Below are positions 3,077-63,360 of a DNA stretch of 64,000 bases, one piece after another. How positions within the stretch are numbered: the first letter of the stretch is position 1; every line of letters starts with the position of its first letter. Made by a program: the position numbers and the translations under genes. The stretch comes from Aquiluna sp. Lineage in GTDB: Bacteria > Actinomycetota > Actinomycetes > Actinomycetales > Microbacteriaceae. The stretch spans positions 609,059 to 673,058 of the forward strand of contig JAIOXN010000001.1 of assembly GCA_021741585.1 (NCBI GenBank), in the 5' to 3' direction. Under the pieces are notes generated by a model that had not been told where the DNA came from, searched no databases, and saw only the letters and a list, made by a program, of their open reading frames with translations.

Positions 3077-3514
3077 ATGATAAGAGAGGGCAAAGAATCT
3101 GATTTCGATGCCTTGATTAAATTGCTCGCTGATTTCTCCTCAGAAGCAGGTACGAGCGTTCCCACTAATCACTTGAAGAACGCGCTCTTGCCGCTTCTTG
3201 AAGGCACTGAACTTGGCGAAATCTTGGTGCTGGATCTTGAAGAAGAAATTGTTGGCTATTTGGCGATTGGCTATGGCTGGGGAATTGAATCTGGCGGCAA
3301 GGAGGCGCTCTTTGATGAGATCTTCATTCGCAGTGACTATCGCAATCAGGGACACGGCAAGACGCTGATCCGGCGCGCACTTGCCCACGTCAAAAACCAA
3401 GGAGCTAAAACCGTTTTCCTGGAAACCGAAGCATCAAACCCGGATTCTAGAGAGCTCTATCAAGCTTTGGGCTTCGAGGTTGAAGACTCGATATGGATGC
3501 GGGTGCAAATCTAG
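3077..3514 (+). CDS. GNAT-family N-acetyltransferase (145 aa), translationally coupled to acs.
   Basis: Its ATG immediately follows the acs TAG stop. Acetyl-CoA-binding-type motif RNQGHGKTLIRRAL; GNAT-like length and fold signature. Confidence 0.7.
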   Translation: MIREGKESDFDALIKLLADFSSEAGTSVPTNHLKNALLPLLEGTELGEILVLDLEEEIVGYLAIGYGWGIESGGKEALFDEIFIRSDYRNQGHGKTLIRRALAHVKNQGAKTVFLETEASNPDSRELYQALGFEVEDSIWMRVQI

Positions 3515-3522
3515 GCGCGCCC

Positions 3523-4611
3523 CTAGCCCAACAGTCGATGCATGAGACCTTCAAGAGGGCCTCTTGAAAACCGCTTCCTCCAAAACCAGGAGAAGGCAAT
3601 TGCGCAGATGCTGAAAACAGAACTCGACACCACTACCCACGAAAGGCTTTGGTCGTATAAAAGCCCCAGTTGATCTAGAATTCCCATTCCCACCAGCACG
3701 TGCCCTACATAAATAGTTAGGGCAAGTTGACCGGTTGACACCAATGGTTCGATAACTCTTGCCGAAGCCTTTTCCCCAATCCAGAGTGCAAAAACAATAA
3801 TCAGAACAGCGGTTCCGGCCCCTGCAAGCAAATACAGCGGGAAGGGCGGAATGGGGTCGGTTGACAAAAGAAATCTTGCACTTTGCGGATCAAGATTCGA
3901 GTGGTCACTACCTCGAATACCAAGAGCAAAGAAAGCAAGCACTTCGCTAATTAGGGCTACTGCCCCGGCGCGTATTGCCAGCTTCATCCTCCAGGCCTGA
4001 TCGCTTAGGTTTGTCCTTCCCAACCACATTCCAAATAGATAGAAAGTAATCCAAGGGAAAACTGGGTGAAATCCATCAAAAAATAGGTTGCGGAGAAATC
4101 CCTGCGGGGTAAAGAGCCCCTCATAAGCCAAGCTGTTTAGGTCCCAGTTCTGAAATGGATCAAAAGTAACCAAAAAGACCAGCGAAATCGTGATTGCAGA
4201 AACTCCAATAATCCAAAGTTTTCGGCTTGAGACAAACAGAAGCGCAGCGCCTATTGCCAAATAGGCGCCATAGAAGTGGAGGATGTCAGCTGGCCAGATT
4301 GGGAAGAAGAGCCAGCCAATAACAAAGAGAAATAGTGCTCGTTTAGCTAACCGGATTCGAGCGATTCGCTTTGAATCTGAGTCACCTGCTTCGCGAGCCC
4401 TGCGAGATGCCAGGGAGGCCCCGATGCCTGCGAGAACCACAAAAAGTGCGGCAGCGCGACCATCGAACATTGAAACCAAATAGTGCAACCACTGAGGTCC
4501 AGATTCAGTCGCACCCATGGTTACCTTGAAGTTCACCAGCACCATACCCAGGATCGCAAAGGCACGAGCCAAGTCGAGACCAACCAGGCGAGTATTTTGT
4601 GGCTTATTCAA
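3523..4611 (-). CDS. DUF418/YeiB-family polytopic membrane protein.
   Basis: Multiple TM helices; C-terminal FSRGPLEGLMHRLLG resembles the DUF418 RGPLEWLWR signature. Confidence 0.55.
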   Translation of the reverse strand: MNKPQNTRLVGLDLARAFAILGMVLVNFKVTMGATESGPQWLHYLVSMFDGRAAALFVVLAGIGASLASRRAREAGDSDSKRIARIRLAKRALFLFVIGWLFFPIWPADILHFYGAYLAIGAALLFVSSRKLWIIGVSAITISLVFLVTFDPFQNWDLNSLAYEGLFTPQGFLRNLFFDGFHPVFPWITFYLFGMWLGRTNLSDQAWRMKLAIRAGAVALISEVLAFFALGIRGSDHSNLDPQSARFLLSTDPIPPFPLYLLAGAGTAVLIIVFALWIGEKASARVIEPLVSTGQLALTIYVGHVLVGMGILDQLGLLYDQSLSWVVVSSSVFSICAIAFSWFWRKRFSRGPLEGLMHRLLG

Positions 4612-23910: not shown

Positions 23911-24808
23911 GCCAATAGCCATTGCAATCAGCATGCTGATTGCTACATCTACCCTCACAGGATGCGCAATGAGCGAACCAACCGATCCAAACTTGCTTTG
24001 GTCTCAAGAATTTGATGGCGAAGCAGGGTCTGCGTTGGACTCAACCTATTGGACTGCTGAGATTGGTGATGGCGGCTCAAAAGGTATTCCAGGCTGGGGC
24101 AACAGTGAGCGCCAGTATTACCTAGAAGAGGCCGCACGCACCGATGGCGAAGGAAACTTGGTCATCACTGCAACCAAGATGCCGGTTTATAGCAAGGACA
24201 ATCCAGATGGGATGCCAACCGAGGAGAATCCATACCTCTGCTATTACCTAACCGCTTGTGAGTGGACCAGTGCCAGAGTTATTACCGAGAACAAACTTTC
24301 CTTTATGTATGGCCGCATGGAAACCAGAATCAAAATGGGTGGCGGCCAAGGAGCATGGCCTGCATTCTGGATGCTCGGCACAAACATCGAGCAGGTCGGT
24401 TGGCCACAAAGCGGCGAAATCGACATCATCGAGTCTCTTGGACGAGACCCAATGACCGCATATGCAACTTTGCATGGGCCTGGATACTTTGCCGGCCAAG
24501 GCTATGGTGCAACCAGCGCTAGGCCGGATGCCCTGGCCGATGATTTCCACGTTTATGCGATCAACTGGAAACCTGACTACATCGAGTGGGAAATCGATGG
24601 CGAGGTTTTCCACACCGCCACGCCTGAGGATGTAGCTCCCAATGAATGGGTCTACAACCAACCGTTTTACCTCTTGATGAACCTGGCAATGGGCGGTGGC
24701 TTTGGTGGAAACATCGATCCAAAACTTGAGTCTTCACAAATGTCAGTTGATTACATCAGGTACTCAAAATACGAAGGCTTTGGGGAAATTTCCGAGACCT
24801 CGGAGTAA
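23897..24808 (+). CDS. GH16 beta-1,3(-1,4)-glucanase (laminarinase-type) lipoprotein.
   Basis: Lipobox LTGC; GH16 catalytic motif GEIDIIE (ExDxxE). Confidence 0.8.
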   Translation: MAISKPIAIAISMLIATSTLTGCAMSEPTDPNLLWSQEFDGEAGSALDSTYWTAEIGDGGSKGIPGWGNSERQYYLEEAARTDGEGNLVITATKMPVYSKDNPDGMPTEENPYLCYYLTACEWTSARVITENKLSFMYGRMETRIKMGGGQGAWPAFWMLGTNIEQVGWPQSGEIDIIESLGRDPMTAYATLHGPGYFAGQGYGATSARPDALADDFHVYAINWKPDYIEWEIDGEVFHTATPEDVAPNEWVYNQPFYLLMNLAMGGGFGGNIDPKLESSQMSVDYIRYSKYEGFGEISETSE

Positions 24809-28924: not shown

Positions 28925-29728
28925 TTAGCTAACAATCGCCGGAATGATCGCTCCGGAGAATACCTGCCAGGCAAGCAATGACTTAGCCACCAAGCTCAAG
29001 GTGATATAGGTCTTTTCTCCAAACAGGTAGTTCTTCCATGGGCCGACCTTTTTGTACTGGAAGGCCTGGTTGAAGGCGAAGGTATTGAAGAAAATGAAGA
29101 TTGCAATCACGATGCCATAGACAAAGCCAGGAATCTCAGCGGCGCTAGAGCTGCCAGGCTGGATTATGTAGACCGCAAGAATCAACCAAGGGACAATTCC
29201 GGTGATGGAACCCATGATGAATGGAAGACCCTTACCGTTTCCTGGTGTCTCATATTTTTCTTGCAGTGCACCAAAGAAAATCATCGATGCGTTCACGCCA
29301 AAGATTGCAACTAGGGCTGCAAAGTTAGAAACACCATTTAGCTGTGCGATCAGCCAGATCATCACTGAGGATGACAACGAGTACTCAACCCAGCGGAAGT
29401 AATTGTGGTTCTGCTTGAGTCCTGCTTTGTATCGCCCAAAGAACATTGGGGAGGAAATGATGAAGTGGAACAGGGCAGATAGTGCCAAAAACCCAACGAC
29501 ACCGGCACCGATGTTGATGTCAAAGAGCTCGACTCGCTCAGGAGGAATCGGCACACCCGGAGGGCCCGCTGGATACTCAATGGTTACCGGGAAAAGAATC
29601 TGGTTATCAAGCAGGGTCAGAACATATGTCAGACCAAGTGCTTGGGCAAGGTGAAGAAATCCTGCCACCACGTTGTATCTGCGAAGACCCTTGATTTGAG
29701 TATCTATATCTTTTACGCGTCTGGCCAT
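28925..29728 (-). CDS. Heliorhodopsin: 7-TM retinal-binding protein with inverted topology.
   Basis: 267 aa, 7 TM helices. Matches HeR hallmarks: FLHLAQ (His in TM1), ALFHFI (His in TM2), FRWVEYSLSSSVM (Glu counterion in TM3), IFGVNASM, PGFVYGI, and SLVAKSLLAWQVFSG (Schiff-base Lys in TM7). Collinear with the 48C12 prototype. Confidence 0.9.
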   Translation of the reverse strand: MARRVKDIDTQIKGLRRYNVVAGFLHLAQALGLTYVLTLLDNQILFPVTIEYPAGPPGVPIPPERVELFDINIGAGVVGFLALSALFHFIISSPMFFGRYKAGLKQNHNYFRWVEYSLSSSVMIWLIAQLNGVSNFAALVAIFGVNASMIFFGALQEKYETPGNGKGLPFIMGSITGIVPWLILAVYIIQPGSSSAAEIPGFVYGIVIAIFIFFNTFAFNQAFQYKKVGPWKNYLFGEKTYITLSLVAKSLLAWQVFSGAIIPAIVS

Positions 29729-31338: not shown

Positions 31339-31512
31339 CTAGCTCGCCTTTCGTTGTGCGGATTTTGCGCCAGACTTTCTTTGCTTAACTGCATCCCTAA
31401 GAATCAACTCGATTTGAGCATTGAGAGACCTGAGGTCCTGCTCGGCCCAACCCTTGAGCTCCTCCCAGAGCTCAAGGGGAATCCGAAGCGGAATTGCTTT
31501 TTTCTCACTCAT
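31339..31512 (-). CDS. Arc/MetJ-type ribbon-helix-helix DNA-binding protein (57 aa), unlisted small ORF.
   Basis: Manual translation: MSEKKAIPLRIPLELWEELKGWAEQDLRSLNAQIELILRDAVKQRKSGAKSAQRKAS. Beta-strand IPLRIP followed by two helices matches the Arc-repressor pattern. Its start lies 2 nt after the SPFH stop codon. Confidence 0.55.
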   Translation of the reverse strand: MSEKKAIPLRIPLELWEELKGWAEQDLRSLNAQIELILRDAVKQRKSGAKSAQRKAS

Positions 31513-31514
31513 GA

Positions 31515-32486
31515 TTAGCTGTAGAGGGTTCCGGTGTTTACTACTGGAGACGCCTCTCGCTCAGATACGAGCACTACAAGTAGGTTGCTAACCATGGATG
31601 CTCTCTTGTCCTCATCCAAGACGATGTTGCTGCTCTTTTCTAGATCATTTAGCGCCATTTCAACCATGCCAACAGCACCCTGAACAATCTTGCGCCTGGC
31701 AGAGATAATTGCATCTGCTTGCTGACGCCTCAGCATCGCCTGAGCAATTTCAGGAGCATAGGCAAGGTGGGTTAGACGAGCATCTTCAATAACAACTCCA
31801 GCAACCGCAAGCCTTCTTGATAGATCTACGCGAAGCTCGTTTGAAACTTCCTCAGGGTTTCCACGAAGAGTCAGCTCTTCGGAGAGCTCACCTGAGTCGG
31901 AGTGGTCATATGGGAACTGGGTTGCAACGTGGCGAAGTGATGTTTCCAATTGGGTCTTCACGTAGTTGCGGTAATCATCAACTTCAAACACAGCCTTAGC
32001 GGTGTCAGAAACCTTCCAAACCACAACCGACGCAATCTCAATTGGATTACCTTTGCGATCATTCACCTTGATGGTGTCACCAACCTCGGTGCGCGCGCGC
32101 AAGGAAATCTTGTATCGAGCATCGGTTTTCTTGATAGTGGTGCCGGTTTCCTTGGCTTTCTTGAACTTCTCCTCTTGAGGAGTTGGAGTCGGTGTGCCGT
32201 TTGAATACAGTGGGTTAGCCCAGTGCAAACCGGCCTTCTTGATGGTTCCGCGGTACTTTCCAAACAGGATCAAGACTCTTGCCTCGTTTGGCTGCAAAGA
32301 GAAGAAGCCACCATACAGAATCGTCACCAGGGTGAAGACAGCCACAGGCAAGAACACCATTAGTGATTCTTCGCCAGATTCGCGAACCACACTGAAGAAC
32401 CAGAAGCCGGTTGCTATTTCAATTGCGGTTAGGACAAAAAACATGAGTGCGCCGTTGAGAACGCGTGCTTCTTTTTCGTTAGTCAA
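31515..32486 (-). CDS. SPFH/band-7 (stomatin/flotillin-like) membrane protein.
   Basis: Two N-terminal TM helices, then an SPFH domain (VLILFGKYRGTIKKAGLHWANPL...) and a C-terminal coiled-coil. Confidence 0.75.
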   Translation of the reverse strand: MTNEKEARVLNGALMFFVLTAIEIATGFWFFSVVRESGEESLMVFLPVAVFTLVTILYGGFFSLQPNEARVLILFGKYRGTIKKAGLHWANPLYSNGTPTPTPQEEKFKKAKETGTTIKKTDARYKISLRARTEVGDTIKVNDRKGNPIEIASVVVWKVSDTAKAVFEVDDYRNYVKTQLETSLRHVATQFPYDHSDSGELSEELTLRGNPEEVSNELRVDLSRRLAVAGVVIEDARLTHLAYAPEIAQAMLRRQQADAIISARRKIVQGAVGMVEMALNDLEKSSNIVLDEDKRASMVSNLLVVLVSEREASPVVNTGTLYS

Positions 32487-32501
32487 TCTTGCTCCTATAT
32501 C

Positions 32502-32517
32502 AAAGTGATATCACTTT
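32502..32517. promoter_or_regulatory. Perfect 16-bp palindrome AAAGTGATATCACTTT upstream of the SPFH-RHH operon, candidate operator.
   Basis: Exact inverted repeat, 16-31 bp upstream of the SPFH start codon, in the 48-bp gap after folD. Confidence 0.45.
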
Positions 32518-32534
32518 AGTATTAAAAACAAGAT

Positions 32535-62244: not shown

Positions 62245-63360
62245 TTAGTCATATGGGTTGAGAACGATGTCAACCTTTTGGAATTCTTTGACATCGCTGT
62301 AACCGGTGGTAGCCATTGCCCTGCGCAATGCACCCATTAGGTTTGCGGTTCCCTCGGCACTCTCGGCAGGTCCGGTAAGGATGTTCTCAAGCGGTGCGTG
62401 AGAGCCAACCCAAACTCGCTTTCCTCTTGGCAAGCTCTGGTTCACAGCCTCTTGCCCCCAGTGCCAGCCTCGGCCAGGCGCCTGTGACGCTCTTGCCAAA
62501 ACGGTTCCAAGCATCACTGCGTCAGCACCGCAGGCAATTGCCTTGACGATATCTCCAGAAGTTCCAAGACCACCATCTGCAATCACGTGGACGTATCTTC
62601 CACCTGACTCATCCATGTAGTCGCGTCTTGCAGCAGCGACATCGGCAACCGCGGTTGCCATCGGCGCATGGATTCCAAGAATGTTTCTGGTGGCACTAGC
62701 TGCCCCGCCACCAAAGCCAACCAGGACACCGGCTGCACCGGTGCGCATTAGGTGTAGACCAGCTTGGTAGGTGGCTGCGCCACCAACAATTACTGGCACA
62801 TCCAACTTGTAGATGAATTCTTTGAGGTTTAGCGGCTCAACAGACTTTGAGACGTGTTCAGCAGAAACCGTGTTTCCACGAATCACGAACATTTCCACGC
62901 CGGCTTTGAGAACGACCTCTGAAAACTCAGCAGTTCTTTGCGGGGAGAGTGCTCCGGCCACTGTTACTCCGGCTGCTCTAATCTCGGCCAGTCTTGCGGT
63001 GATGAGCTCTGGCTGAATAGCTTTTGCGTAGACGCGCTGCAAAACCGAAGTTGCATCTTCGTCTTTTGCGTTTGCAATCTCTTCAAGTTGTTGGATTGGA
63101 TCCTCGTAGCGAGTCCACAGACCCTCTAGATCTAATACGCCCAAGCCGCCAAGCTTGCCAATCTCAATTGCGGTGGCAGGAGACATTGCGCTGTCCATTG
63201 GGGCAGCCACAACAGGCAAATCAAACTTGAATGCATCAATTGACCAGTTGGTTGAGACATCCTGAGGATCTCTGGTTCTTCTGGTTGGGACTACTGCGAT
63301 GTCATCGAAGGCATAAGCCTTCCTAGCGCTCTTGGCGCGCCCAATTTCGGTTTCGTTCAT
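62245..63360 (-). CDS. guaB3: GuaB3-type IMPDH-family protein (no CBS insert).
   Basis: 371 aa, IMPDH TIM-barrel motifs (GGLG...GSICTT-like region), lacks the CBS pair. Directly downstream of guaB as in Actinobacteria. Confidence 0.75.
   Translation of the reverse strand: MNETEIGRAKSARKAYAFDDIAVVPTRRTRDPQDVSTNWSIDAFKFDLPVVAAPMDSAMSPATAIEIGKLGGLGVLDLEGLWTRYEDPIQQLEEIANAKDEDATSVLQRVYAKAIQPELITARLAEIRAAGVTVAGALSPQRTAEFSEVVLKAGVEMFVIRGNTVSAEHVSKSVEPLNLKEFIYKLDVPVIVGGAATYQAGLHLMRTGAAGVLVGFGGGAASATRNILGIHAPMATAVADVAAARRDYMDESGGRYVHVIADGGLGTSGDIVKAIACGADAVMLGTVLARASQAPGRGWHWGQEAVNQSLPRGKRVWVGSHAPLENILTGPAESAEGTANLMGALRRAMATTGYSDVKEFQKVDIVLNPYD

Follow-up and report, generated by a model that had tools for sequence, protein, structure and literature searches.

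We describe here a two-gene unit on the minus strand of a 64 kb stretch of DNA from Aquiluna sp. (contig JAIOXN010000001.1), referred to below as the window, by which we mean the whole stretch that was analyzed. The unit has folD as its upstream neighbor and an aldehyde dehydrogenase gene as its downstream neighbor, and it consists of a gene for an SPFH/Band-7 membrane protein, a gene for a 57-residue Arc-like ribbon-helix-helix (RHH) protein immediately behind it and, ahead of both, a set of short palindromic boxes. The same cassette spans Actinobacteria, Gammaproteobacteria, Planctomycetota, Acidobacteriota, Armatimonadota, Deinococcota, Bacillota and others, and we consider it probable, judging from sequence comparison, that the small protein is a repressor that acts on the tandem boxes and so autoregulates SPFH dosage in a self-contained two-gene operon.

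The SPFH gene and its Arc-like neighbor

The small gene (31339..31512, minus strand, ATG start, product TAATCATG, a proposed autorepressor) had been pointed out in a first-pass annotation of the letters of the window, which placed it 2 nt past the stop codon of the SPFH gene. Both its position and a match to the Pfam Arc model bear this out, the junction of the two genes reading TAA-TC-ATG. At 57 aa the product is shorter than the 60-aa default of the open reading frame (ORF) listing, which would explain the absence of the gene from the ORF track. With the Arc model (PF03869) residues 8-44 reach 23.2 bits (E = 6.3e-5), above the gathering cut-off of 20.4, and the RHH_5 model gives 21.9 bits, under its cut-off of 26. 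A search of 5.8 billion proteins returned approximately 20 clusters of close homologues of 54-63 aa; further homologues measure 58-72 aa, some of them carrying the NCBI name 'Arc family DNA-binding protein', and a profile search with the family produced at least 8000 candidate matches, with distant homologues in the thousands. For codon and synteny comparison we used as a reference the contig L339, an 82%-identical relative. Of the codons of the small ORF that differ in this contig, 21 are synonymous changes and 11 non-synonymous, the differences falling mostly at third positions. Because clusters of homologues exist and codon changes concentrate at third positions, these comparisons identify the 57-aa ORF as a real gene.

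In the alignment of the family the residues K5, R10, R28, S29, N31, Q33, I34, E35 and R39 are invariant, the short tail past residue 45 differs among members in length, charge and sequence, and there is no conserved ligand-sensing domain. When compared with the PDB, the family profile aligns over its full length with P22 Arc (1arq, E = 2e-3) and with single-chain Arc (1u9p, E = 2.8e-6), placing the strand K-A-I-P-L-R-I onto Arc Q-F-N-L-R-W and R28-S29-x-N31 onto Arc R-S-V-N. The family also has in common with Arc and Mnt an R-S-x-N motif where helix B begins. Probabilities from hhalign are 91% over 50 columns for Arc, 49% for Mnt and 1% for CopG, the Arc comparator sequence agreeing with the PDB alignment. 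By these alignments the small protein belongs to the Arc family.

Two individual members of the family may be noted. The first, P0241, is a metagenome protein of 102 aa with the top profile score (146 bits) that contains a full RHH domain and a second copy of helix A-helix B; a partial tandem duplication in nature could account for it, as could an artefact of assembly or gene calling. The second is an RHH orthologue behind an SPFH gene on plasmid NZ_CP097154.1 of Deinococcus sp. QL22 (L095, 2995-3192), which is annotated as 'PTS ascorbate transporter subunit IIC' and is evidently a misannotated Arc-like protein of 65 aa.

The SPFH gene itself (31515..32486, minus strand) is supported by both the ORF listing and Pfam and encodes a protein of 323 aa, for which Band_7 (PF01145) gives E = 1.5e-24 and 87.4 bits against a cut-off of 23.6. 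Its start codon is TTG, as opposed to ATG at the equivalent position in L339, and a Shine-Dalgarno sequence, AGGAG (32492..32496, minus strand), can be read directly 5 nt ahead of it. Hydropathy analysis locates two N-terminal hydrophobic segments at approximately residues 12-34 and 42-64, so that the protein has both the above-threshold domain and the membrane anchor at the N terminus that characterize the SPFH superfamily; the hydrophobic segments are followed by the SPFH domain and then by a conserved C-terminal tail, ...PVVNTGTLY. From the topology, the SPFH domain is predicted to be cytoplasmic, on the same side of the membrane as the RHH protein. The closest solved SPFH structure is that of prohibitin-1, a remote match at E = 4e-4. 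The window protein is 46% identical to its orthologue in Dokdonella, and its top homologues with a source name are labeled Actinobacteria or Nanopelagicales, labels that suggest an actinobacterial origin for the window. An insertion of approximately 28 residues, rich in Pro, Thr and Lys (…SNGTPTPTPQEEKFKKAKETGTTIKKTDA…, approximately residues 95-122, region 31786..31872), is present in the window protein and not in the Dokdonella orthologue.

The protein does not group with HflK or HflC. With TIGR01933 (hflK) it reaches 17.8 bits where 159.4 are required, the ORF list has no second SPFH gene adjacent to this one, unlike hflK-hflC pairs, and the JGI label 'HflC' found on homologues is generic. 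NCBIfam assigns no specific family, its YlcI/YnfO and hflK models lying far under their cut-offs. The first-pass annotation had remarked on a dedicated RHH partner in place of the usual NfeD, and this observation is upheld, since the window neighbors are folD and the aldehyde dehydrogenase gene and no NfeD family occurs among the called neighbors in the window or in the related loci that were read. Profile scores and gene order thus place the protein in a distinct SPFH subfamily that is neither HflK/HflC nor part of an NfeD operon.

Boxes at 11-bp spacing ahead of the SPFH gene

A gap of 48 nt separates the SPFH start from the folD stop (32535) and contains the perfect 16-bp palindrome AAAGTGATATCACTTT (32502..32517, no strand assigned). 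The first-pass annotation had put forward this palindrome as the upstream element of the pair. It is present as described, but alignment of the DNA upstream of SPFH genes establishes that what is conserved in cis is a box of 8 bp, TGATATCA, with copies spaced exactly 11 bp apart, and the palindrome corresponds to box 1 with symmetric AAG/CTT spacers. Box 1 (32506..32513, read on the minus strand) is a perfect copy with the core GATATC and is the sole exact TGATATCA in the window. Box 2, TGATATAG (32495..32502, minus strand), lies 11 bp downstream of box 1 and overlaps the Shine-Dalgarno sequence by 2 nt, and a degenerate box 3, TAATACTA (32517..32524, minus strand), lies 11 bp upstream, where it overlaps a -10-like TAAAGT (32513..32518, minus strand). 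Boxes 1 and 2 fit the tandem pattern with 2 mismatches, 0.11 such matches being expected in the window by chance; the second tandem match in the window, which involves box 3, has 3 mismatches.

Considered by itself, the 16-bp palindrome was rejected as a significant feature. At the composition of the window approximately 1.2 perfect palindromes of at least 16 bp are expected per 64 kb and 3 are observed, the other two being GCAATCAGCATGCTGATTGC (20 bp, 23924..23943) and GGCAACCGCGGTTGCC (16 bp, 62644..62659). A single TGATATCA is also unremarkable, with 0.56 expected in the window. Because the palindrome and a single box are both expected by chance, the significance of the site rests wholly on its conservation across genomes.

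This conservation is high. When the best tandem upstream of the SPFH gene is scored in 83 loci there are no mismatches in 16, one in 38, two in 14, three in 10 and four in 5, so that 68 of the 83 have at most two mismatches, to be compared with the 7-8 that are typical of random 310-nt windows. The 11-bp spacing of the boxes is identical across all loci compared, and among 76 unique operators, a set dominated by Xanthomonadales, conservation at each of the seven TGATATC positions lies within 88-100% for the two boxes and within 88-99% for box 1, and the spacer is T-rich. The three-box arrangement of the window recurs in L339 (TAATAGTA) and in the actinobacterial contig L001 (AGATAGTA), and an extended palindrome, CAAAGTGATATCACTTTG, stands ahead of the SPFH gene on plasmid pDrdIV of Deinococcus wulumuqiensis, as it does in the window. 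The distance from box to start codon ranges from approximately 17 to 160 nt among loci.

The boxes can also be placed relative to likely promoter elements. The consensus, to which Xanthomonadales contribute most, has a TTGCAA-like hexamer whose last base is 2-3 nt short of box 1 and, 16 nt downstream, TATCAT/TATCTT supplied by box 2. Assigning these as -35 and -10, we infer a sigma-70-type promoter in Xanthomonadales whose spacer and -10 are covered by the operator, which therefore overlaps the core promoter. At actinobacterial loci a TANNNT element adjoins box 1 (TAAAGT in the window, TAGTAT in L001) and may serve as the promoter element there. Box sequence also varies with the RHH strand: variants with A6/P8 are accompanied by near-perfect boxes (mean of 1.2 mismatches, n = 56) and x6/L8 variants by degenerate boxes of the TGATATA type (approximately 3 mismatches), a pattern that is confounded by phylogeny and gives a weak hint of covariation in specificity.

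Linkage across genomes

In order to establish how general the arrangement is, the RHH alignment was used to scan one genome per species, giving at least 579 confirmed loci, and the best 80 of these 579 were inspected. An orthologous SPFH gene of 42-66% identity is found directly upstream on the same strand in 78 of the 80, often with a gap of -8 to +10 nt between the two genes, and tandem boxes lie upstream in nearly all. The best 80 include loci from Planctomycetota, Latescibacterota, Armatimonadota, Ignavibacteria, Fibrobacteraceae and Acidobacteriota, as well as from Microbulbifer, Steroidobacteraceae and many Xanthomonadales, among them Stenotrophomonas maltophilia and Xanthomonas. Conservation in related genomes had been named beforehand by the first-pass annotation as a check on its proposal, and related and very distant genomes alike do keep the order of the genes, their close spacing and a palindromic element upstream. 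Closer to the window, other actinobacterial metagenome contigs have the SPFH gene followed by the RHH gene with a 2-nt gap, and the RHH gene also follows SPFH orthologues in a Nanopelagicales metagenome-assembled genome (MAG; L336) and in a 2-Mb contig (L338). The synteny of L339 is that of the window: glyA, folD, SPFH, RHH, aldehyde dehydrogenase and heliorhodopsin. The heliorhodopsin gene of the window (28925..29728, minus strand; PF18761, E = 4.8e-95) is two genes downstream of the SPFH-RHH pair.

Two further genes accompany the pair in Xanthomonadales. The order in Dokdonella is SPFH, RHH and then a DUF4177 gene; a DUF4177 gene (60 aa, for example L007 4212-4394) comes right after the RHH gene in 34 of the 80 loci, Xanthomonadales only, and some Xanthomonadales have an ORF of 95-135 aa with three transmembrane segments between SPFH and RHH (for example L051 2636-3004). 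As both are restricted to Xanthomonadales and absent from the window, neither was retained as a third conserved gene.

The linkage can also be followed starting from the boxes. For this reverse test 120 metagenome and 120 viral contigs were picked blind on an exact TGATATCA-N3-TGATATCA, the scan of viral contigs, in which the motif occurs at about background level, being used as a control. An SPFH orthologue is present within 400 bp in 57 of the 120 metagenome contigs, 42 of which also have a detectable RHH gene, and the module is present in 1 of the 120 viral contigs. This sole viral hit (L280, IMGVR_UViG_3300029387_000027, 3245-4299) has operator, SPFH and RHH, and could be a prophage-adjacent or misclassified host fragment. 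In L119 and L179, where the operator is perfect, the SPFH gene is followed by a divergent RHH (…FRSTNGQLQWII…) that is under the search threshold, so that the RHH family extends to lineages beyond the reach of tblastn at that threshold; the C-terminal ends of the corresponding SPFH proteins are …VVNAGTLHH (L119) and …VVNTGTLNH (L179). Two contigs from Lysobacterales MAGs (L030 1349-1607 and L033 10-269) carry orphan units, consisting of an RHH gene and tandem TGATATCA boxes and no SPFH gene, with the boxes 70-80 nt ahead of the RHH gene itself. Since the boxes precede RHH even where SPFH is missing, they are co-inherited with the RHH gene.

In some lineages the cassette is found in settings associated with mobility. 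Collections of phages and plasmids contain the SPFH-RHH pair on Deinococcus plasmids, in a clostridial replicon and on one unannotated 'phage' contig, none of these examples having an annotated function attached. On the 31 kb plasmid pDrdIV of D. wulumuqiensis (NZ_CP031162.1; L093 2084-3201) the cassette is located among AbiE, Fic, AbrB/MazE, ImmA/IrrE and IS5. In the actinobacterial contigs L001-L005 it lies between a ResIII/RE_endonuc type III restriction-like gene and an AAA_25 + Prim-Pol island; the neighborhood of the cassette is thus variable and, in some lineages, partly mobile.

One reading of such settings is that the cassette serves addiction or defense, with the SPFH protein a membrane effector that is harmful in excess and the RHH protein its labile brake, as in type II toxin-antitoxin (TA) or abortive infection systems. 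The plasmid genes just named and the restriction/Prim-Pol surroundings would fit, as would a distribution that is patchy across phyla, yet with sequence and operator highly conserved, which suggests horizontal spread as a unit. There is also a likeness to RHH antitoxins such as ParD and CopG-like proteins, in that palindromic repeats likely let a small RHH protein control the two-gene operon that encodes it and that the cassette is sometimes on plasmids or near mobile genes. We nevertheless judge this reading to be highly improbable. No match at E <= 0.01 was obtained in PADLOC-DB 2.0 for the SPFH protein, the RHH protein or the DUF4177 neighbor of Xanthomonadales, and the partner belongs to no known toxin family. 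The RHH tail past residue 45, variable and short, is not a conserved C-terminal toxin-binding extension, and a toxin-neutralizing domain is therefore lacking. The order of the genes, effector and then regulator, is the reverse of that in antitoxin operons. The window has housekeeping surroundings (glyA, folD, aldehyde dehydrogenase) and a flat composition, the context of L339 is likewise a housekeeping one with no anomaly in composition, that in Xanthomonadales is stably chromosomal, and only a single motif-bearing viral contig contains the module. The antitoxin analogy drawn in the first-pass annotation is accordingly unsupported by the features examined, namely the unconserved tail, the effector-first order and the failure of either protein to match PADLOC models.

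A model for autoregulation and its alternatives

In the model that we favor the 57-aa protein would be an Arc-like repressor, each dimer of which would insert a two-stranded beta-sheet (approximately residues 5-11, K-A-I-P-L-R-I) into the major groove, with one dimer for each palindromic TGATATCA box. The 11-bp spacing would place neighboring boxes on the same face of the helix, and adjacent dimers could then bind cooperatively. A palindromic core once per helical turn over the promoter is the geometry of Arc, variants of which are found in MetJ and CopG (for CopG, PMC2724298). The boxes of the window would stretch from the -10-like element to the ribosome-binding site, and in Xanthomonadales box 1 would fill the -35/-10 spacer while box 2 would hold the -10; with boxes on or next to the promoter, bound repressor would block spfh-rhh transcription. 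The repressor gene is last and is likely to be tightly or translationally coupled to the SPFH gene, in which case the level of repressor should track SPFH synthesis and keep the dosage of an oligomeric scaffold in a narrow range. As there is no conserved ligand-sensing domain, concentration-dependent homeostasis, as for Arc, Mnt and CopG, is the default. Autoregulation, suggested by the first-pass annotation, is therefore the natural if putative reading of boxes that travel with RHH in L030 and L033 without SPFH and that overlap the -35/-10 assigned in Xanthomonadales; the 'membrane-stress module' of the same annotation is conjecture.

Several results weigh against this model. A sigma-70 scan at the window locus found no canonical promoter, and for this reason the actinobacterial promoter assignment is offered as inference only. 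A terminator scan at the locus found no terminator between folD and SPFH, so that read-through from glyA-folD is possible. There is no SPFH gene nearby in 63 of the 120 motif-picked metagenome contigs, which are either chance matches or other targets, and L195, L212, L116 and L185 have boxes and an SPFH gene and no adjacent RHH gene. Two AlphaFold2 monomer runs, with 26 and 129 sequences, predict a confident straight helix over residues 13-56 and not the beta-alpha-alpha fold asked for by the first-pass annotation, Foldseek with this single-helix model finds no PDB match beyond coiled coils, and the family is without the Gly of the inter-helix loop of Arc. RHH domains are, however, obligate intertwined dimers that fold only as such; for this reason, and because the homology to Arc is clear, the RHH fold is retained as a putative one, although its failure to appear in the monomer models is a real weakness of the case.

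The high-confidence prediction of a single long amphipathic helix and the loci that have boxes and SPFH without an adjacent RHH would also accord with a structural role for the small protein, which would pair as a helix with the SPFH oligomer and stand in functionally for NfeD; the boxes might then belong to a promoter, a UP element or an RNA leader, or be read by a different regulator. This we consider highly improbable. The homology to Arc covers the whole domain, including the strand that contacts DNA and the R-S-x-N phosphate-contact motif, and the boxes stay with the RHH gene where the SPFH gene is absent. Proteins that bind DNA as dimers typically have as their site a palindromic core recurring with each helical turn, and the core seen here is kept across phyla with differing promoters. 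Finally, a box-to-start distance as variable as that seen here argues against a fixed leader-RNA element.

An extension of the autoregulatory model is conceivable as well, in which SPFH oligomers sequester or release the RHH protein so that transcription follows the state of the membrane or the amount of free scaffold. Conservation of the 57-aa protein across phyla is unusually high, with 45-60% identity, and extends to the exposed helix-B residues Q33, E35 and R39; the strict linkage of the genes, whose start and stop codons often overlap, implies a fixed stoichiometry; and the SPFH domain is predicted to be cytoplasmic, facing a repressor that has no ligand domain of its own. The control of PspF by PspA may offer a parallel. 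In the Psp systems (PspA-PspF; B. subtilis pspA-ydjGHI/SamI) a membrane effector is coupled to the control of its own operon, with an SPFH protein involved in B. subtilis; the regulators are not homologous, and in Psp an activator is sequestered by the effector, unlike the repressor-operator relation that is all that is seen here, so that Psp-like sequestration of RHH by SPFH would be speculative. Conservation of the small protein can, moreover, be explained by the constraints of DNA binding and of dimer or tetramer formation alone, and the orphan units of L030 and L033 have RHH and operator without SPFH. We regard the extension as unlikely, and give equally little credence to its most general form, a widely transferred membrane-state sensor in which an SPFH cage captures and releases its own Arc-like repressor. 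If true, it would add to the SPFH superfamily a partner-switch circuit that is both new and minimal, with transcription reporting scaffold assembly or membrane perturbation, and would give a bacterial SPFH subfamily whose function is undocumented an output that is defined and open to test.

Returning to the autoregulatory model, it is of interest to compare the cassette with known systems. By sequence the nearest are Arc and Mnt of P22, which are similar in size (approximately 53-57 aa), have no ligand domain and share R-S-x-N. Arc binds as a dimer of dimers to a 21-bp operator between the -35 and -10 of Pant, and the sub-sites of the window operator are likewise spaced by one helical turn (11 bp) and lie over the putative promoter. 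The differences are that Arc belongs to a phage immunity switch (immI), whereas here a chromosomal or plasmid cassette is built on a membrane-scaffold gene; that each box here is itself palindromic (GATATC) and the boxes are direct repeats; and that the base-facing strand residues are A6/P8/R10, as against Q9/N11/R13 in Arc, the inter-helix loop glycine being absent, as noted above. In the CopG-RepB operon of pMV158, CopG is a small RHH repressor that shares a transcript with its target gene and keeps RNA polymerase off its own promoter (PMC2724298). To that extent the systems are alike, each having a small RHH repressor in an operon with the gene under its control, with co-transcription and repression putative in our case; CopG differs in being encoded first, in controlling a replication initiator and in having no detectable profile similarity to the present family, its hhalign probability being that given above. 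SPFH-NfeD operons (PH1511/PH1510, YbbK-YbbJ, FloA/FloT with NfeD) provide the precedent for a conserved two-gene unit of SPFH and a small dedicated partner (PMC2636767), the partner here being a soluble protein of DNA-binding type and not a membrane NfeD/OB-fold protein. Hinderhofer et al. distinguish 12 prokaryotic SPFH subfamilies, report NfeD as the sole conserved partner, list no NfeD partner for SPFH3, 4 and 6-12, and call SPFH6-12 undocumented; a search of that paper by terms gave no mention of a DNA-binding partner (PMC2636767).

No description of an SPFH protein with an RHH, Arc or CopG partner, or of the box motif, was found in the open-access literature, an absence that is not proof. 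Autorepression by RHH proteins is classical; what appears to be undescribed is a dedicated Arc-like repressor with an operator conserved across phyla on an SPFH subfamily. To our knowledge bacterial SPFH proteins are ubiquitous and most are without a defined function or regulation, and we know of few regulator-operator pairs that are conserved at such a level across phyla. One subfamily can now be seen to travel with its own Arc-like regulator and a near-invariant operator, TGATATC(A) every 11 bp, and conservation of this extent implies that SPFH dosage is under strong selection and that the cassette has spread as a unit. Annotation is corrected at the same time, the small RHH gene having been missed or mislabeled in some records. 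With a defined site, a 57-aa protein and tractable carriers in Stenotrophomonas and Xanthomonas, the cassette provides an experimental handle on when and why the scaffold is expressed.

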